A stretch of DNA of 64,000 bases from a virus. The notes below the pieces were generated by a model, which was given only the letters and a program-made list of their open reading frames with translations, had not been told where the DNA came from and searched no databases. Location of the stretch: UHGV virus genome UHGV-1332848. One strand, written 5' to 3'. Shown one piece after another: positions 11,888 to 24,681 of this stretch; the stretch's first letter is position 1; the number at the start of each line of letters is the position of its first letter. The position numbers were made by a program, and so were the translations under genes.

Positions 11888-11936
11888 TAATAATTAATTA
11901 AAAAGTCTTGAAGGTTAATATATAATATGGTAATAT
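11888..11936 (+). promoter_or_regulatory. AATAATTAATTAAAAA motif + TTGAAG-17-TAATAT promoter
   Basis: TTGAAG 11908-11913, TAATAT 11931-11936. Confidence 0.55.
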
Positions 11937-11984
11937 AAATATATCAAGAAATTCTTGGTAAAATAATTAAAGTGAGGTAATGAA

Positions 11985-12323
11985 ATGAATGAATTAAAAG
12001 CATTTTACATTACAGATGATAACGGGATTATAAAAGATCTCATAATAGGAACAAAAGAAGATAGACAAGTTGCCTTAACTACACTAGATTTTATAGAAAG
12101 TAGAAATGATAGTTGGCTCAAGCATCGAGTAGTTGAGATGCCAGCAGAAGGGATAATACATAAAGGATATATGAATATAGTAACTACTATAAAGATGAAT
12201 GGAATTCCAATTCGATGTATTCTTAATGGATTTCATAGCTTAATTGAGGCTATAGACAAGTATATGAGTATTGAAGATGGTTATAGACATTATAGTTATA
12301 TTAGCGAATACATAAAGTTGTAA
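11985..12323 (+). CDS. hypothetical protein
   Basis: 112-aa ORF, RBS GTGAGG. Confidence 0.5.
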   Translation: MNELKAFYITDDNGIIKDLIIGTKEDRQVALTTLDFIESRNDSWLKHRVVEMPAEGIIHKGYMNIVTTIKMNGIPIRCILNGFHSLIEAIDKYMSIEDGYRHYSYISEYIKL

Positions 12324-12354
12324 TAATTAATTAAAAATAGGTGGAAACACCTAC

Positions 12355-12554
12355 AATAAAGGTCGATTCAACGGTGATATGGTAAAAAGTATCACATACC
12401 TAAATCGAGAAGTATCAACCACCAAGTATTTTCTTGAAAGGGCTGAAAACTCTCGATAAACCAAAAGAGCGAATAGCTGGTAAATTCTTAGCGACAGTGG
12501 ATATTAGGGTGCTAAGACATATATACTATATCTAACAACAGTATATTTACTAGG
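12355..12554 (+). ncRNA. structured non-coding scaffold A (tracrRNA/omegaRNA-like), upstream of mini-array A
   Basis: Shares ordered blocks with scaffold B: AATAAAGGTYGATT (12355-12368), ACCTAAATCGAGAAG (12398-12412), AACTCTCGATAA (12448-12459), CAAGTATTTT..CTTG. ATCGAGA/TCTCGAT can pair. Contains anti-repeat ACATATATACTATATCTAAC (12517-12536). Confidence 0.5.
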
Positions 12555-12652
12555 GTTAGATATTAACATAGTATATATGTGAATACATGTAGCAACGGAT
12601 CATATAAAAAATGCTATCAAGTTAGATATTAACATGGTATATATATTGAATA
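12555..12652 (+). CRISPR. mini CRISPR-like array A: 2 x 31-nt repeats (GTTAGATATTAACATRGTATATAT...) with one 35-nt spacer, period 66
   Basis: Repeats at 12555-12585 and 12621-12652 with 2 mismatches. Unique spacer CATGTAGCAACGGATCATATAAAAAATGCTATCAA. Confidence 0.5.
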
Positions 12653-12711
12653 TTAGAATTGTGTATATAAATGAATTATTAACAAAATTAATTAAATAAA
12701 GAGGTATAAAA

Positions 12712-14061
12712 ATGGGGATTAAAATAAATAAATGTATAAAAGTAACTTTAAATAAATGCTTAAATATGGATATGAAAGAAATAAAAAGAATAATTAGAGA
12801 TTTTAACTATGATTCTTGTAGAGCGTCAAATAAAGCAATTAGAATGTGGTTATTCCATGCACAAGACATGATGGCAATGAAATTTATAGATAAAGATTTT
12901 AACATAAAAAAATATGAAAAAGAGAAGTATGGGAAAACGTATAGAAATGTAATTGAAAGAGAAATGAAATTATTAATGCCATTAGCGAATACTTCTAACG
13001 TAGGAACTTTACATCAGCAATTGGTTCAAAATGATTGGGGTAGAATAAAAAAGGATGTTTTAAATTACAAAGGACAAATAAGTAGATATAAATTAGATAC
13101 TCCTTATTTTATAAAAAATGATAATTACATATTAAGAAATCATAATGGATATTTTGTAGACATAGCATTTTTTAATAAAGAAGGATTAAAAAAATATGGA
13201 TATAAAGCTGGTCATAAATTTGAATTTCAAATAGATAAAATAGACAATAATAAAAAATCAGTTATAAATAAGTTAATAAATGGAGAATATAAACAAGGTT
13301 CATGTCAAATATATATTTCTAAAAAGGGAAAAATAGAATTAATAATAAGTTATGGATTTGAAAAAGAAATAGAAAATACTTTAAATCCTAATAAAATCCT
13401 TGGAGTTGATTTAGGCATAGTAAATACTGCAACAATGATAGTTTACGACTCTGAAATGGAGAAATATGATTATTTTAGTTGGAAGACAAATGTTATAGAT
13501 GGAGCAGAGTTAATTAAATTCAGACAGAAATATTATAATCTTAGAAAAGATATGAGTATAGCTAGTAAATATGCTGGTGATGGTAGAATTGGACATGGGT
13601 ATAAGACAAAAATGAAACCAGTAAATAAAGTTAGAGATAAGGTTGCTAATTTCTCAGATACTATAAATCACAAATATAGCAAATACATAGTTGAGTTTGC
13701 AGAAAAGAATAGTTGTGGAGTTATTCAAATGGAGGATTTATCAGGGGCTACTGCAAATGTGAAAGAGAAGTTTTTAAAAGAATGGAGTTATTATGACTTG
13801 CAAAAGAAAATAGAATACAAAGCTAAAGAAAAAGGAATCGCAGTAGTAAAAGTTAATCCTAAATATACCTCAAAAAGATGTAACAAGTGTGGGAATATAC
13901 ATAACGATAATAGAAATTGTAAAGATAATCAATCAAAATTCAAATGTGTTATTTGTGGACACGAAGATAACGCTGACATAAATGCTAGTAAAAATATTGC
14001 AATACCTAACATAGATAAAATAATCAATACATATATAAGTGATAATGAGAAAGTTGGTTAA
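12712..14061 (+). CDS. TnpB/Cas12f-like RNA-guided RuvC endonuclease (449 aa)
   Basis: RuvC-I 'ILGVDLGIVNTATM', RuvC-II 'GVIQMEDLSG', Zn finger 'CNKCGN...CVICGH', RuvC-III 'NADINASKNIA'. RBS AAAGAGG. No adjacent TnpA. Confidence 0.85.
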   Translation: MGIKINKCIKVTLNKCLNMDMKEIKRIIRDFNYDSCRASNKAIRMWLFHAQDMMAMKFIDKDFNIKKYEKEKYGKTYRNVIEREMKLLMPLANTSNVGTLHQQLVQNDWGRIKKDVLNYKGQISRYKLDTPYFIKNDNYILRNHNGYFVDIAFFNKEGLKKYGYKAGHKFEFQIDKIDNNKKSVINKLINGEYKQGSCQIYISKKGKIELIISYGFEKEIENTLNPNKILGVDLGIVNTATMIVYDSEMEKYDYFSWKTNVIDGAELIKFRQKYYNLRKDMSIASKYAGDGRIGHGYKTKMKPVNKVRDKVANFSDTINHKYSKYIVEFAEKNSCGVIQMEDLSGATANVKEKFLKEWSYYDLQKKIEYKAKEKGIAVVKVNPKYTSKRCNKCGNIHNDNRNCKDNQSKFKCVICGHEDNADINASKNIAIPNIDKIINTYISDNEKVG

Positions 14062-14074
14062 TTCCAACTTTAAA

Positions 14075-14283
14075 ATAAAGGTTGATTTACCAACCTAAAT
14101 CGAGAAGCAATATAAATAAAATGGCTTATGTGCTATGATTGGAGATATTAACTCTCGATAATGCCTTCAAGTATTTTAGCTTGGGAAAAGTGAAAGTTGG
14201 AGAGCTGATAAAGTCAGCGAGGTTGCTTTCTGATACATCTTATTGGACTTATTTATATATGGTTAAATGGCTATTTTAAAATG
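14075..14283 (+). ncRNA. structured non-coding scaffold B (tracrRNA/omegaRNA-like) beginning 14 nt after the TnpB-like stop
   Basis: Blocks AATAAAGGTTGATT (14075-14088), ACCTAAATCGAGAAG (14093-14107), AACTCTCGATAA (14150-14161), CAAGTATTTTAGCTTG. Has 8-9 nt complementarity (GATACATCT, 14223-14231) to the repeat. Confidence 0.5.
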
Positions 14284-14510
14284 GTTTGATATTAACATGA
14301 GATGTATTTAAATTTATTAATATCTAATTGTTTAGTAACTTTTGATATGTTTGATATTAACATGAGATGTATTTAAATTACATTGGTAAAAACTCTTTAT
14401 AATAGAAGTCTATGTTTGATATTAACATGAGATGTATTTAAATTAATCTCCACAGTATTCGTTTAAATCTAAATTGTAGCTTGATATTAACATAAGATGT
14501 GTTCGAATTG
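14284..14510 (+). CRISPR. mini CRISPR-like array B: 4 repeats (GTTTGATATTAACATGAGATGTATTTAAATT), 3 unique spacers (~34 nt), period exactly 65; terminal repeat degenerate
   Basis: Repeat starts 14284, 14349, 14414, 14479. Last repeat TTGATATTAACATAAGATGTGTTCGAATTG is mutated. Spacers are unrelated to each other. Confidence 0.6.
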
Positions 14511-14523
14511 AGTTGAATATGCA

Positions 14524-14570
14524 ATAATTAATTAAAAACTATTGAGAAACATAGAAATATATGGTAATAT
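14524..14570 (+). promoter_or_regulatory. AATAATTAATTAAAAA motif + TTGAGA-17-TAATAT promoter
   Basis: TTGAGA 14542-14547, TAATAT 14565-14570. Immediately after array B. Confidence 0.55.
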
Positions 14571-14777
14571 AAAAGAGTGGATAAATTCTACAAATAAAAT
14601 CGTACTAGATTAAATTTACATATATAAAAATAGTTAATTAAAAGGAGGTGGAATATATAAATAAAATTAAAATTTTCTTATATGGACTAATGATAAGAGT
14701 AGACGTCAAATTCAGACTGTACCACAAATGGAGTGAATTTAAAAAATGGGTTGATGTAAAAATGGGTTGATGTAAAA

Positions 14778-14942
14778 ATGGGTTGCAGGGATAAAACTGG
14801 AAATATCATAAAATGTAGGTATTGTAGGTCTAAAAACTTAGATTGTTACGATAACATAATTGATTCTGGATGGTGTTCTATTATTGAAAAGATGGTAGGA
14901 TGCAAACAATGTGGAAAAGATTTGGGGTATAAAAATAATTAA
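14778..14942 (+). CDS. small Cys-rich Zn-ribbon-like protein
   Basis: 54-aa ORF with 6 Cys including CxxC pairs. Start created by third copy of a 16-bp tandem repeat (ATGGGTTGATGTAAAA x2.5). Confidence 0.3.
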   Translation: MGCRDKTGNIIKCRYCRSKNLDCYDNIIDSGWCSIIEKMVGCKQCGKDLGYKNN

Positions 14943-14970
14943 TTAAAATGAAAAAAGGAGAGATATAAAA

Positions 14971-15648
14971 ATGAAAATTAATTCAACAAAAAATATTATT
15001 AAAGAAATTAAAGGAACAAACACTTTCGAGGTGATAACTTTTGGGGAAGGAAAAGATTTAGATGAATTAAAAGATAAACTAGCAATGAATGGATTTGAAT
15101 TTAAAAAGGATGGATCAATATTAAACTTAAAAAGAAGAATTAAAGAGTTGGAACAATATATAAACAATGCAGGCTCAATTGTAAAAAGAAGTACACAGTC
15201 CACTGTAAGAGAAATAATAAGCAATGCATATAAATATTCTTCATATTTTAATGAAGAGAAGAAGAACTGTATGTTTAAATATATATTAGATATGAATAAT
15301 ATTGAAGTAATTTTAGATGAGGATTTTAATGGAAACCTAATGGGTAAAATAGTCATAGATATTAAAACAAGCGATGATAATAACCTATTGTCATGGGCAG
15401 AAGTTAATAATAACAACGATGAAAATCTAATTACGATTTCTGATTATAATTACTATGACAATAGTTCATATGGAATAAAAAAGACCAACGATTTGGATGA
15501 TAAAATAGTTATATATACTGATATAAACAATGCCACTTGTAAAATTGAAACAGGTATGAATGTTATGCTTAAAGGTAAAGATTCAATTTATACTGTATTG
15601 AGTGCTGATAGGAGATCACATGATAGATTAAGAATGGTATTGATTTAA
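14971..15648 (+). CDS. hypothetical protein
   Basis: 225-aa ORF, RBS AAAGGAGAG, after AATAATTAATTAAAATG motif. Confidence 0.55.
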   Translation: MKINSTKNIIKEIKGTNTFEVITFGEGKDLDELKDKLAMNGFEFKKDGSILNLKRRIKELEQYINNAGSIVKRSTQSTVREIISNAYKYSSYFNEEKKNCMFKYILDMNNIEVILDEDFNGNLMGKIVIDIKTSDDNNLLSWAEVNNNNDENLITISDYNYYDNSSYGIKKTNDLDDKIVIYTDINNATCKIETGMNVMLKGKDSIYTVLSADRRSHDRLRMVLI

Positions 15649-15774
15649 GAATGAGGCATTAGAGTGTAGATTATATAATAGTTTTAAAAAGGATGTGAAT
15701 AATGAAAGCAATAGGTGATAAATAGTGCGACAAGACGGGTATATAATGATGTGAAAAATGAGGAGGGATTTAGT

Positions 15775-16026
15775 ATGGAATTACAATGTGCAAGAATAGG
15801 GAGAGTATTTAAAAGTATTTTTGAAAAAATAAAAATTACTCAAGTTGCTGGAGAATTAAATCAATTAGGAATAAATGTTAGAAAAACAAATAATGAATTT
15901 AAAACGCTTGAAGAAATATTGGAAGAAGTTTCAAAATTAAATAATGAAGATGCAATGAAGGCTAGTAGGTTAATAGCTGGGGAATATAATGCCAATCATT
16001 TATTTGCCATGATAAAGAGTTTATAA
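15775..16026 (+). CDS. hypothetical protein
   Basis: Track ORF 15715..16026. Internal ATG at 15775 has strong RBS GAGGAGGG, so this start is preferred. Confidence 0.5.
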   Translation: MELQCARIGRVFKSIFEKIKITQVAGELNQLGINVRKTNNEFKTLEEILEEVSKLNNEDAMKASRLIAGEYNANHLFAMIKSL

Positions 16027-16286
16027 AATGACTATTTTAAAAAGAAAAAGGATTAGAGACAGACTAATCTTTATCCCTAATCCAATTTCATATGCGAGGT
16101 CGAAGAAGATGACCCCAGTTATATTAATTACAGTTTTTATTATAAACAATGTTGTGATATAAGTAAAGATGAAAATACTGGATAAGGAGGAAAATATGAA
16201 AAGAACAGATTGAAGAAACTAAATGAATAAATAAAAGATTTAAAGGTGAGCAAATTGTAAATATTGCGAAGAAAAGGAGATAGGAA

Positions 16287-16634
16287 TTGATGAGTGTAAA
16301 ATTAAGCGAATTAAAAGATAATGAAATGTTATTGATAGATGATGATTATAATTCAATTATGTCTAAGGAAGATTACTTGGGGGATTTAGAAAGCTATAAA
16401 GGGTATGAAGTGTACACAACCACAGAATATAGAGCAAGTATTGATGCTAAATATATGCTAGAGAGTGAAATAGAATGTGAAGCTTCTAATATGTATGAGG
16501 ATTGGGAGTATGACGTATGGGATGATATAACTGAAGAAGATATAAATGAACTTCAAAGGATTGTAGATAGAATATTAAGTGGGAGTAGAAATATTTCTTA
16601 TATCGCTGACAAAAGAGTAGAAATTGATATTTAG
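16287..16634 (+). CDS. hypothetical acidic protein
   Basis: 115-aa ORF, RBS AAGGAGATAGG. Confidence 0.5.
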   Translation: MMSVKLSELKDNEMLLIDDDYNSIMSKEDYLGDLESYKGYEVYTTTEYRASIDAKYMLESEIECEASNMYEDWEYDVWDDITEEDINELQRIVDRILSGSRNISYIADKRVEIDI

Positions 16635-16705
16635 TTAATACGCATTTCAGAAATATCACTAATTAAAATATAGTATTTAACAATTATTAGAAGGTGGTGA
16701 AATAA

Positions 16706-16882
16706 ATGGTAGATGAGATTAGAGAGTATCTTCAAAGTCAATTAAACAGTGTATATTGTGATACCTGCGGATCAGAGAATTGTGATGAGTGTCACAGAAA
16801 ATCTATGTATTGGAGTATATCAGAAGATTATGCTGAAACGTTGGCAAATAGAATTATAAATATAATGAAAGAAGAAGGTTAA
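16706..16882 (+). CDS. small Cys-containing hypothetical protein
   Basis: 58-aa ORF, RBS AAGGTGGTG. Contains CDTCGSENCDEC. Confidence 0.45.
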   Translation: MVDEIREYLQSQLNSVYCDTCGSENCDECHRKSMYWSISEDYAETLANRIINIMKEEG

Positions 16883-16937
16883 ATTGAACAGTTGATAAGA
16901 TATAATAAGGCTCTAGGAAAGATTAAATAATTTTATA

Positions 16938-16986
16938 TAATAATTAATTAAAAACTATTTACAATACAATAAAAAGATGTTAATAT
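16938..16986 (+). promoter_or_regulatory. AATAATTAATTAAAAA motif + TTTACA-17-TAATAT promoter
   Basis: TTTACA 16958-16963, TAATAT 16981-16986. Confidence 0.55.
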
Positions 16987-17038
16987 TAGATTGTAAGGTA
17001 AATATTACTAATAAATACATAAAAGAGAGGTTAAATTT

Positions 17039-17767
17039 ATGAGAAAAGATGAATTAATGAAAGACTTATTAAGTTGTGGATTTAAATTTAATGAAAGAGG
17101 TGATATTGTAAATTTTGAGAGCAGGAAAACGGATTTAGAAGGAATGTTATATTCGTGGAAGGGTACTATTTTTGAAAACTCTGTGAAAGATAGTGTAAGT
17201 AATGTATTAAAAAACGTAGATGAATATAACGAATTAAATAAAGTGGTAAAAACAAATAAAATAAACTACAAAGACGGACTTGGAATTCTGTCTTGGGAGT
17301 TATTAGACAAAAATAATTTAAAGGTGAAAGTGCATAGTGGGCGATTCCATATTGTGACATTATTAAAGATATTAATTTCCGAAATAGATGTTTTGAAAGA
17401 ATTTAGCTATAAAAGAATTAGCCCTTATAAGCTAGAATGGGAAAGACCTATGCATAGAGAAGATAAGACTCACGTCTACAAAATGGTGTTTATTGATGTG
17501 AAGGATGAAAATAAAATCAAAGAATCTGAAATAATAAAGCTGAATTGTAGCATGAGCTTAGAGGTAGGGGAATATAATTTTTTCATTCCAGATTTATTGG
17601 AACTTGCGAGATTGAAAGGTTTAGTTAAACTAGAAGAAGATATTTATAAATATGTAGAAGGTAGATTTATTGATGTATTGAATATAAAATATATTGACGA
17701 TAGTATGAGCAAGGAGAAACTTAAAGCAAGTGGTTGGACAGTACCCATAGGATATGTAGAAAGATAA
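17039..17767 (+). CDS. hypothetical protein
   Basis: 242-aa ORF, RBS AGAGAGG. Confidence 0.55.
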   Translation: MRKDELMKDLLSCGFKFNERGDIVNFESRKTDLEGMLYSWKGTIFENSVKDSVSNVLKNVDEYNELNKVVKTNKINYKDGLGILSWELLDKNNLKVKVHSGRFHIVTLLKILISEIDVLKEFSYKRISPYKLEWERPMHREDKTHVYKMVFIDVKDENKIKESEIIKLNCSMSLEVGEYNFFIPDLLELARLKGLVKLEEDIYKYVEGRFIDVLNIKYIDDSMSKEKLKASGWTVPIGYVER

Positions 17768-22664: not shown

Positions 22665-23723
22665 GTGTTATCTAAAGAAATGATAAAAGAATACATAATT
22701 GTTAATGAAAAAGTAGAAGAAATTTTAAAAGAATTAAATTGTAAAGGTGTAAAACCACATGATAACACAAGATATTACACAGGTGGTTTTCCTGATAGTG
22801 ATGGGAATACTAGCTTTGCTTTATTCTCAGACAGTCTTTATGTAGATAGCTATACAAGAAATATTAAAGATCAATATGGTAATTCTGATATATTCAGTTT
22901 GGTAATGTTTATTAAAGATATGTATTTTAGTAACGCTTTAAATTGGATATGTCAAATATTAGGTTTAGATTACTATGATGACTCTACAGAAGAGATACCA
23001 TTAAGTTTACAGTTAACTAATCTAATTTTTGATATGAACAATGGGTTAGATGAAAATGAAGAAAATGAAATGTTAAAACCTATAAATGAGAATATATTAA
23101 AAACTTACTACAAGGGTGGCAATGATTTATTTATAAATGATGGGGTTAGTTTAGCCACACAAAGAGAATTTGAAATAGGTTTTGATTTAGATAGTGGAAG
23201 AATAACAATACCAATAAGAGATGAATTAGGAACTTTGGTTGGAGTAAAAGGTAGACTGTTTAATAAAAGTGATATAGGAGAGAAATACATATATTTAGAA
23301 AGATGTTCAAAATCTAAAATACTTTATGGATTATATAAAACAATTGAATATATAAGGCAAAAAGGTATATGTATAGTAGTTGAGTCTGAAAAAAGTGTTT
23401 TAGTTTTATGGGAGCAAGGAATTAGAAATGTAGTTGCAATAGGGGGGCATTCGCTTTCTAAAATTCAAGTTGAAAAGATAACTAGGTTAGGAGTAAAAGA
23501 GGTAGTTCTTTGTTATGACTCAGACGTTGCAAGACTTGAAGATGGCAAGATAGACAAAAAAGAGTATTTAGAGGAAGCAAATAAGTTTATAGAAGAAGTT
23601 AAGGTTTCAGCTATGGTTGATATAAAAGGAGATATATTAAAAGAAAAAGAATCGCCAGTGGATAGATTTGAAAATTTCATAAAAATGTATGATGAAAGGA
23701 AGGTTTTACAGGTTGGTAAATAA
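22665..23723 (+). CDS. DNA primase (Toprim domain)
   Basis: 'IVVESEKSVLVLWEQG' (Toprim Glu) and 'VVLCYDSDVA' (DxD). Confidence 0.65.
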   Translation: MLSKEMIKEYIIVNEKVEEILKELNCKGVKPHDNTRYYTGGFPDSDGNTSFALFSDSLYVDSYTRNIKDQYGNSDIFSLVMFIKDMYFSNALNWICQILGLDYYDDSTEEIPLSLQLTNLIFDMNNGLDENEENEMLKPINENILKTYYKGGNDLFINDGVSLATQREFEIGFDLDSGRITIPIRDELGTLVGVKGRLFNKSDIGEKYIYLERCSKSKILYGLYKTIEYIRQKGICIVVESEKSVLVLWEQGIRNVVAIGGHSLSKIQVEKITRLGVKEVVLCYDSDVARLEDGKIDKKEYLEEANKFIEEVKVSAMVDIKGDILKEKESPVDRFENFIKMYDERKVLQVGK

Positions 23724-24681
23724 GCTTATAGAGGTAAATAAAGATTGTAAAAAGATAAAAGTTAATATAAATGAGTTACCTATAAAAGATAAATTAAGTT
23801 ATTCAAGATTAGATTGTTTTAAAAGTTGTGAATATAAATATAAATTGAAATACATAAATAAGAATTATACAAATGATTCAAGCTTAGCATTAAGGATAGG
23901 TACTATACTCCATTTAGGATTAGAATATAAGTATTTAAAAAAATATAAAAATGAAGAAATATTGGATTTAATTTATAAGGGTTGTATTGAAGAAGGAGAA
24001 GAAGTTATAGGATTAGATAAACTAAAAGATGAATATCCTTTTGAATGGGAAGAAGAAGATAAATTTGGGAGAACATATGATGAAAAAATAGAACTTTATA
24101 AATATAGGCTGTTAGAGGACATAGAAAAGGATTGGGAATGCATAGGTTGTGAAGTTCCATTTGATATTTTATTTGAAAATAAAGCTATAATACATGGATT
24201 TATAGATAGAGTAGATAGACACAAAATTACAGCAGACATAAGAGTTGTTGACTATAAAAGTTCAAAAAAGCCTTATGATAAAAAAGAATTAGCCACTCCT
24301 TTACAGATGTATGTTTATGCCTTAGCTTGTAAAGAAATGTATGGTAAATTTCCTAGTAAGTTTATATATGATATGATTTTAATAGGAGAAAAACAAGAAG
24401 CGATGACTAAAGGTTGGGAGAAAAGAGGATATACAGCTCTTAGTAAATTGATAAACAACTTAATCGTACATAATGAAAATAACAATATTAATATGATACC
24501 TAAACCATCGCCACTTTGCCATTGGTGTAGTTATAGTGAAACTAATCCTAATGCTACAAATGGTAAAGGGCTTTGCGAATACAATCTCTTGTGGACACCT
24601 GATAATAAAGTTTGGAAACAGAATAAAGAGTGGATTGAGGTAGTTGAGGATAATGATGGTTGGGGAGATGAATGGGAATAA
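23689..24681 (+). CDS. PD-(D/E)XK nuclease with C-terminal Cys cluster (Cas4/RecB-like exonuclease, DUF2800-type)
   Basis: 'GFIDRVDR...VVDYKSSKK' (D..D/EXK). C-terminal 'CHWCSY...C' Fe-S/Zn cluster as in Cas4/AddB. Confidence 0.6.
   Translation: MMKGRFYRLVNKLIEVNKDCKKIKVNINELPIKDKLSYSRLDCFKSCEYKYKLKYINKNYTNDSSLALRIGTILHLGLEYKYLKKYKNEEILDLIYKGCIEEGEEVIGLDKLKDEYPFEWEEEDKFGRTYDEKIELYKYRLLEDIEKDWECIGCEVPFDILFENKAIIHGFIDRVDRHKITADIRVVDYKSSKKPYDKKELATPLQMYVYALACKEMYGKFPSKFIYDMILIGEKQEAMTKGWEKRGYTALSKLINNLIVHNENNNINMIPKPSPLCHWCSYSETNPNATNGKGLCEYNLLWTPDNKVWKQNKEWIEVVEDNDGWGDEWE

Follow-up and report, generated by a model that had tools for sequence, protein, structure and literature searches.

Does a row of four evenly spaced repeats in a virus genome belong to a working CRISPR system, and if so, which nuclease would it serve, against which targets, and from where would it obtain its spacers? 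We addressed this question for a stretch of 64,000 nucleotides of the virus genome UHGV-1332848 (the window), in which a first-pass annotation had described a small CRISPR array, here called array B, with a mutated terminal repeat. Our comparisons favor, with a probability of roughly 80%, a genuine CRISPR array that is linked to a Cas12f nuclease, would depend on a trans-activating CRISPR RNA (tracrRNA) and would be aimed at rival mobile elements. That array B is the CRISPR array of a phage system of type V-F1 (V-U3) can be stated with high confidence from the sequence. Beyond what the annotation had noticed, the locus has a cas12f neighbor, a putative tracrRNA with an anti-repeat, a repeat of the type I-B kind and targets for two of the three array B spacers.

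Repeats that start at 14284, 14349, 14414 and 14479 and keep a strict 65-bp period, as annotated, were recovered from the sequence itself, by a repeat finder and by Tandem Repeats Finder (14284-14445, period 65, score 201). The repeat finder placed all four in one family, with an additional 71% copy at 12618 that corresponds to a second array, array A. Repeats 1-3 of array B are the same 30-mer, GTTTGATATTAACATGAGATGTATTTAAAT. The fourth, GCTTGATATTAACATAAGATGTGTTCGAAT, is indeed degenerate, but it differs from the others at 5 of 30 positions rather than at the six or more that had been counted. Likewise, the spacers B1, B2 and B3 are unrelated to each other, with 12-15 ungapped identities over 35 positions, and thus unique as described; their length is 35 nt instead of about 34 nt. 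Both this value and the repeat length of 30 nt were set by protospacer boundaries and by comparison within the family. Repeats A and B agree at 19 of their first 24 positions, which reproduces the earlier count, and at 23 of 30 overall. Each spacer occurs a single time in the window at up to three mismatches; there is therefore no self-targeting within the 64 kb, in line with the annotation. The repeat core GATATTAACAT is confined to the six repeats of arrays A and B (0.2 chance matches expected in the window) and is therefore not a dispersed repeat family. Repeat-spacer units scattered through the genome had been named as the finding that would speak against a CRISPR array, and none was found elsewhere in the window; a dispersed repeat or minisatellite was thus ruled out by the window searches with the spacers and the repeat core. 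As a side observation, positions 14317-14327 of B1 hold TTAATATCTAA, which is reverse-complementary to the 11 nt that follow the G of repeat A (TTAGATATTAA); the repeat finder reports the pair as an inverted repeat of 27 nt at 74%, which probably reflects chance in AT-rich sequence.

The gene that ends 222 bp before array B encodes the candidate effector. Solved structures of AsCas12f (8j12, 7wju and 8dzj) match its product end to end (residues 9-439, E about 1e-73), and the PADLOC models Cas12u3 (1.3e-120) and Cas12f (4.6e-116) both match over the full length. Further matches were obtained with NCBIfam guided_TnpB (1.7e-47) and Pfam Cas12f1-like_TNB (8.5e-23), while solved structures of Cas-phi and Cas-lambda match weakly (E=8e-5 to 0.03). 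The RuvC residues D233, E341 and D422 and the zinc-ribbon residues C390, C393, C412 and C415 (CxxC...CxxC) are invariant in 12 homologues. These comparisons identify the effector, with high confidence, as a Cas12f with intact RuvC and zinc-ribbon residues. An IS200/IS605 TnpB transposon, which would have a tnpA partner or IS ends, a single omega-RNA over the 3' end of tnpB and no array, was considered and ruled out by the flanking tracrRNA and arrays with changing spacers. The NCBIfam IS200_TnpB exception model reaches 61 bits at a cut-off of 425, and the scanned open reading frames (ORFs) flanking cas12f gave no Pfam match of any kind, so that no tnpA was seen there.

The locus runs in the order tracrRNA-A, array A, cas12f, tracrRNA-B, array B (Table 1). 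The 222-bp gap before array B is homologous to about 230 bp before array A, the two having AAAGGTYGATT, CCTAAATCGAGAAG, CTCTCGATAA and AGGKTGC in common. A tracr profile hidden Markov model, built from the tracr-region alignment and searched with nhmmer, found tracrRNA-B at E=1.8e-52 and its homologue at 12347-12533 at E=3.9e-35. The profile matches 22 of the related loci searched, always on the strand of the gene and immediately upstream of the adjacent array; loci with two tracr copies are restricted to the clade whose Cas12f shares at least 86% identity with that of the window. The consensus fold of tracrRNA-B, which shows compensatory pairs, has three elements, namely a GGTTGA/CCAACC stem, an ATCGAG/CTCGAT helix that is long-range, and a CAAGTA/TAGCTTG hairpin; in the single-sequence fold of the region (z=-3.1) the anti-repeat is paired with repeat 1. 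For anti-repeat A, the longer of the two, the predicted duplex with repeat A has an energy of -21.3 kcal/mol (z=-5.0 relative to shuffled repeats) and ranks first among 24 repeats.

For anti-repeat B we used positional covariation, because naive duplex energies could not separate it from shuffled repeats; what supports it is position and covariation rather than energy. Twenty arrays were aligned from -75 to +30 around the first repeat without fitting to structure. We then scored a helix of 12 bp formed by the anti-repeat with repeat positions 14-25: 78.8% of its cells are paired, compared with 35-49% in slid controls (maximum 48.7%), and 8 of the 12 pairs have changed on both sides, compared with 1-7 in the controls. 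The covariation score of the helix is 0.314, that of the slid controls at most 0.108, and none of 500 shuffles reached the observed value. In AsCas12f1 and SpCas12f1, experimentally mapped tracrRNAs of 153-169 nt lie between gene and array (PMC8548392), and by analogy the placement of tracrRNA-B is that same architecture. Taken from sequence, the identity of this putative RNA as a tracrRNA carries high confidence.

Table 1. Features of the Cas12f locus in the window and published repeats aligned with repeat B.
Feature	Position	Strand	Details
Putative tracrRNA-A	12347-12545	+	Homologue of tracrRNA-B; motifs AAAGGTCGATT, CCTAAATCGAGAAG, CTCTCGATAA
Anti-repeat A	12516-12537	+	GACATATATACTATATCTAACA
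Array A	12555-12650	+	Two 30-nt repeats (12555-12584, 12621-12650), one 36-nt spacer A1 (12585-12620)
cas12f	12712-14061	+	449 aa; type V-F1 (V-U3), AsCas12f clade
Putative tracrRNA-B	14063-14263	+	Between cas12f and array B
Anti-repeat B	14232-14243	+	GATACATCTTAT; pairs with repeat positions 14-25 (ATGAGATGTATT), two G-U pairs
Leader-repeat junction B	14264-14283	+	AAATGGCTATTTTA (14264-14277), then AAATG, abutting repeat 1
Array B	14284-14508	+	Four 30-nt repeats, three 35-nt spacers
Array B repeats	14284-14313, 14349-14378, 14414-14443, 14479-14508	+	Last one degenerate
Array B spacers	B1 14314-14348; B2 14379-14413; B3 14444-14478	+	35 nt each
Clostridium autoethanogenum repeat			GTTGAACCTCAACATGAGATGTATTTAAAT; type I-B, spacers 35-38 bp; 25/30 to repeat B
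Clostridium chauvoei repeat			GATTAACATTAACATGAGATGTATTTAAAT; 27/30 to repeat B
Eubacterium maltosivorans repeat			GTTGAAGTTTAACATGAGATGTATTTAAAT; 26/30 to repeat B

In most of some 40 related loci, Cas12f homologues are flanked by arrays with a period of 64-69 bp; the genomes concerned include those of C. paraputrificum, C. brassicae, C. ihumii and Sarcina ventriculi. The most informative comparison is with a relative whose Cas12f is 96% identical (labeled L005). It lacks exactly 14284-14413 of the window, i.e., 130 bp or two repeat-spacer units at the leader end, while its tracrRNA-B has two differing positions, its degenerate terminal repeat is kept apart from one substitution, and B3 is retained with one mismatch. 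Because so close a relative is without exactly two leader-end units, we conclude that the array turns over. The same comparison bears out the annotated position of the mutated repeat at the leader-distal end, since the relative retains this repeat and the adjoining spacer and is without the two units of the opposite end. Its array-A spacer is entirely different from A1, and two further relatives with an identical Cas12f protein (L101 and L102) have none of the three spacers in common. These differences are compatible with acquisition at the leader end. An AATGGCTATTTTAC-like motif recurs at the leader-repeat junction across related arrays (array alignment, columns 84-100).

Two arrays of relatives deserve separate mention. 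The Cas12f-associated array of C. ihumii (L027, 3774-3909) contains two successive identical 38-nt spacers, which indicate unit duplication. In a viral contig (L011, 2293-3000; IMG/VR 3300044502_000033), a tracr-like region (E=2.7e-4) and a 7-repeat array come before a Cas12f homologue of 43% identity. The 32-nt repeat of this array, GTCGCATCTTGTACGGGTGCGTGGGTTGAAAC, resembles GTCGCACTCTTCATGGGTGCGTGGATTGAAAT, which we take to be the type I-C repeat of Bacillus halodurans; the likeness hints that V-F1 arrays may take after any type I system that shares their host. A paper on Cas4-Cas1-Cas2 adaptation (PMC6519985) gives GTCGCACTCTTCATGGGTGCGTGGATTGAAAT as a CRISPR repeat in its oligonucleotide table.

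If array B is a CRISPR array, its spacers should point to mobile elements. We searched phages and plasmids with the four window spacers by blastn and IMG/VR with wobble-degenerate patterns, for each of which fewer than about 0.05 chance matches are expected by our own rough estimate from base composition and collection size. By blastn, the single hit apart from low-complexity noise for B1 was that of A1 to the terminase gene TerL of a C. perfringens prophage-like plasmid (31/36). The A1 pattern matched seven IMG/VR phage contigs with 4-6 mismatches; overall, the protospacer homologues of A1 are TerL genes of PhiS63-like Clostridium phages with 4-7 mismatches and the 5' flanks ATCA, ACCA or ATCT. 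The wobble-degenerate pattern of B2 found homologues in two contigs (31/35 in L120 and 30/35 in L119), flanked by ATCA. The site lies in a 128-aa ORF that contains the peptide IDFYYKEFLPM, the translation of B2, and the ORF belongs to an unclassified element that also carries a gene of the replication-relaxation family (Replic_Relax). B3 has a homologue in a GIY-YIG gene of a 35-kb viral contig (L118; 29/35, ATCA flank), in frame and antisense. Exact 24-mers of B2 and B3 had no match in IMG/VR, nor did the wobble-degenerate pattern of B1 and one phase of that of B2. The spacers of relatives gave closer matches: one locus (L012) has spacers identical to tape-measure genes of phiSM101-like phages of C. 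perfringens (35/35) and to a plasmid rep gene (36/36), and a C. brassicae spacer (L024) matches a C. botulinum plasmid at 33/35.

All six independent protospacers or homologues (A1, B2, B3, two of L012 and one of L024) have TCA at positions -3 to -1, as ATCA in five cases and TTCA in one. This putative protospacer-adjacent motif (PAM) lies directly 5' of the spacer-identical strand, at the protospacer end that faces the upstream repeat; the six sites thereby settle that the array reads in the + orientation, that the repeat is bounded at 30 nt and that the PAM is 5'. There is good reason, from these matches, to see competing Clostridium mobile elements as the target class of the arrays. Two candidate sites were rejected. 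One, the best match of B1 in all sequence compared (27/35, two mismatches within its first 20 nt), lies at 6539-6573 of L120, in the element that also holds the B2 protospacer homologue and at a distance of 1.5 kb from it; with its TTAT flank and non-periodic mismatches it is probably due to chance. The other, a 20/21 match of the L005 array-A spacer in a related 131-kb phage contig (L001, 1760-1780), has a TTC flank and lies in purine-rich sequence.

We propose the following working model. The + strand would be transcribed from tracrRNA-B through array B, the tracrRNA would pair with each repeat, and host RNases would trim the precursor of the CRISPR RNA (crRNA). A Cas12f dimer carrying the tracrRNA:crRNA, the latter comprising the 3' part of the repeat and about 20 nt of spacer, would then cut TCA-flanked DNA of competing phages and plasmids present in the same cell, so that the arrays would serve inter-element competition.

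Several observations weigh against this model or limit it. The anti-repeat B duplex is short, and its naive energy is no better than that with shuffled repeats (z=-0.7). The matches of the window spacers are homologues with 4-6 mismatches, none of them exact, and the mismatches fall at wobble positions throughout only because the search patterns were built that way. B1 had no convincing target, either by blastn in phages and plasmids or in the wobble-degenerate IMG/VR search. Recognition of TCA by the window Cas12f is assumed, given that AsCas12f1 uses YTTN and SpCas12f1 TTC as PAM (PMC8548392). The indel of units between the window and L005 could be a deletion and not an acquisition, and the scan for adaptation genes described below covers 64 kb of a phage that is probably 130-160 kb long.

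The repeats themselves point to a second CRISPR type. As in the type I-B arrays of C. autoethanogenum, C. chauvoei, C. pasteurianum and C. tetani, repeat B is 30 nt long and ends in TTAACATGAGATGTATTTAAAT; its 3' 22 nt are identical to published repeats of the clostridial I-B type, with 25-27 of 30 positions shared overall. Spacer length (35-36 nt here, 35-38 nt there) and the 5'-TCA PAM are alike as well, TCA being a recurrent clostridial I-B PAM that has been validated in vivo in C. autoethanogenum. The window arrays differ from those of I-B in the first 8 nt of the repeat and in having a Cas12f tracrRNA, not a plain I-B leader, before the array, and no I-B cas operon was detected in the window: among the PADLOC and Pfam matches listed for its 81 ORFs there is no cas6-cas8b-cas7-cas5-cas3-cas4-cas1-cas2 operon. 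We therefore did not file the locus as type I-B, even though its arrays look I-B-compatible.

How would such a system obtain spacers? No Cas1, Cas2 or Cas4 family appears for the 81 window ORFs among the best 25 PADLOC families (E down to 2e-15, with 75 weaker ones beyond), nor among the Pfam matches listed. At 23689-24681, between primase and DNA polymerase, we observed a PD-(D/E)XK nuclease (Pfam PDDEXK_1, 2.2e-25); Cas4 belongs to the same superfamily, and this ORF has no Cas4 match among the PADLOC matches listed. Since repeat, spacer length and PAM are those of I-B and no Cas1 or Cas2 match was seen, new spacers are probably inserted in trans by a host I-B Cas1-Cas2-Cas4, an idea towards which we lean slightly. 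A scan of JGI metagenomes for repeat B gave no matches and thus no host array with the same repeat. According to the PAMPHLET preprint (bioRxiv 10.1101/2024.04.09.587696), V-F1 loci without Cas1/Cas2 co-occur with I-B systems, share their PAM and may borrow their adaptation module. Its case is built on predicted PAMs and on co-occurrence in chromosomes. The V-F1 locus described here is phage-borne, and three of its features lead to the same idea, namely the identity of the repeat, the length of the spacers and the six mapped protospacers.

A more far-reaching variant, which we regard as doubtful, is that the phage Cas12f system is built to plug into the host I-B system both ways, sharing adaptation as well as guides between class 2 and class 1. 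In that case, repeats and leader junctions that imitate I-B would lead the host Cas1-Cas2-Cas4 to load TCA-flanked spacers, and Cas12f could use crRNA precursors from host I-B arrays, or the host Cascade those from the phage arrays. The A-type and the B-type module of tracrRNA and array would then each correspond to a different I-B repeat class. Guide sharing in either direction is conceivable because anti-repeat B pairs with repeat positions 14-25, which lie wholly inside the I-B-identical segment.

The same resemblance raises the possibility that the mini-arrays of the virus work through the host I-B machinery, with processing by Cas6 and interference by Cascade-Cas3, the Cas12f/TnpB-like gene being independent or one of two users. 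Repeat B would suit such use, with 25-27 of 30 positions in common with I-B repeats, the whole 3' 22 nt included, and the 8-nt 5' handle left by type I processing would fall within these 22 nt. Spacer length and TCA PAM would fit too, and clostridial prophage arrays have been documented for C. difficile. However, in all 22 loci matched by the tracr profile the arrays are tied to cas12f and a cognate tracrRNA, on either side of the gene; moreover, the anti-repeat covaries with the repeat, and repeats A and B each have their own anti-repeat. Exclusive host use would not maintain covarying, repeat-specific anti-repeats. We therefore consider this alternative unlikely, although use of the arrays by both systems is conceivable, and retain the reading of array B as a Cas12f-linked, tracrRNA-dependent array.

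Could the array be a decaying, non-functional remnant beside a domesticated or transposon-derived TnpB-like gene? Identical sequences in three repeats and intact, invariant catalytic residues are hard to reconcile with decay, even if the arrays are very short (three spacers in B, a single one in A), array B ends in a degenerate repeat, the matches listed for the window include no adaptation genes, and homologues of the effector are publicly annotated as 'transposase'. Furthermore, the tracrRNA is only 2 nt off that of L005 while spacers change by whole units, phages with identical Cas12f carry different spacers, and spacers match mobile elements with a consistent PAM; no tnpA was seen, the scanned neighbor genes being without any Pfam match. 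A remnant thus appears very improbable. We give just as little credit to a self-regulatory or host-directed system with its true targets in the host chromosome or elsewhere in the phage genome. For three of the four window spacers, the best matches are to genes of foreign phages or mobile elements and carry the PAM of the family; no spacer matches inside the window; and among the spacers of relatives there are perfect matches to phage and plasmid genes of C. perfringens. What such a system has in its favor is that no B1 target was found, that searches of self covered 64 kb of the phage, and that the degenerate terminal repeat could give a cr-like RNA with a fixed guide, such regulatory RNAs being the subject of a preprint. 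Competition with rival mobile elements by means of Cas12f therefore remains the reading that we prefer.

Within this reading, the locus is a known kind of system. As in AsCas12f1 of Acidibacillus sulfuroxidans (422 aa), the effector is miniature (449 aa) with conserved RuvC and zinc-ribbon residues, a long tracrRNA with an anti-repeat lies between gene and array, no adaptation genes lie beside the effector, and the crRNA, here predicted, consists of the repeat's 3' part and, after it, the spacer. It differs in being phage-borne, in the two tracrRNA-array modules that flank the gene with repeats 23/30 identical, in having just 1 + 3 spacers and a 30-nt repeat of the clostridial I-B kind, and in its inferred PAM, (A/T)TCA, in place of the YTTN of AsCas12f1 and the TTC of SpCas12f1. 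Cas-phi (also called Cas12j) and Cas-lambda are likewise phage-borne, with short arrays, no adaptation module and a presumed role in inter-element competition. Cas-phi and Cas-lambda need no tracrRNA, in contrast to the window system, and their structures match the effector weakly. AsCas12f1 and SpCas12f1 perform RNA-guided cleavage of double-stranded DNA as a 2:1 Cas12f:guide complex (PMC8548392), and viral V-F1/V-U3-like effectors have been reported previously in metagenomes. What is unusual here are the two cognate tracrRNA-array modules, the I-B-like repeats and a TCA PAM derived from six protospacers or homologues.

Some features of the flanking sequence were noted in addition. Only 61 bp separate the terminal repeat of array A, its second, from the start codon of cas12f (region 12621-12711), and this short distance probably makes array A part of the 5' leader when cas12f is transcribed. 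Behind this repeat, a pseudo-spacer covers the ribosome-binding region of cas12f, and a regulatory cr-like RNA derived from it is conceivable. Downstream of array B, 14742-14785 is a perfect 16-bp tandem repeat, AAAAATGGGTTGATGT, in 2.8 copies (one less in L005), which reaches into the beginning of a Cys-rich ORF of 54 aa (14778-14942). A recurrent motif, AATAATTAATTAAAAA, is followed by TTGA..(17)..TATGGTAATAT-like hexamers at 11895-11945, 12322-12346, 14518-14570, 14629-14653, 14928-14951 and 16934-16986, with one copy beginning 10 bp past array B; it looks like a candidate promoter consensus of the phage itself. A promoter and terminator scan gave 30 promoter-like sites where 25.7 were expected for sequence of 27% GC, and Rfam and tRNA scans of the window found nothing.

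The window, with 27% GC and co-oriented genes, encodes a pol III alpha-type DNA polymerase, primase, DnaB-like and RecD-like helicases, NrdD, nucleotide kinases and methyltransferases. Its Cas12f homologues lie on contigs of 127-163 kb, one of which is an IMG/VR viral genome, and one homologous protein is recorded as Caudoviricetes sp. When the locus was compared with cultured phages by megablast, nothing matched; the closest cultured phages have a DNA polymerase 34% identical and a Cas12f 37-49% identical. The carrier looks like a large uncultured phage, probably of Clostridium. Two observations concern relatives. In a 1.1-Mb contig with an 80%-identical Cas12f (L108), a 1042-aa protein with a Pfam RdRP domain (14135-17263) is encoded 3 kb downstream of the cas12f-array locus; the domain suggests a YonO-type phage RNA polymerase and would then place this copy in a large prophage. 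A spacer of a metagenome-assembled Clostridium genome (L031) has a marginal 20/21 match inside the cas12f of a viral contig (L006, 3537-3557).

Taken together, the phage looks as if it used two tiny arrays and an RNA-guided nuclease of 449 aa to oppose rival Clostridium plasmids and temperate phages, including relatives of C. perfringens elements. A Cas12f of so small a size, having a defined tracrRNA and, in TCA, a PAM that is not T-rich, would broaden the targeting range of miniature genome editors. For the V-F1/V-U3 family, the leader-repeat junction, the I-B-like repeat, the spacers of 35-36 nt and the TCA PAM provide a concrete substrate for the question of how systems without Cas1 and Cas2 gain spacers; the locus fits the idea that V-F1 systems borrow adaptation from I-B and extends it to phage.

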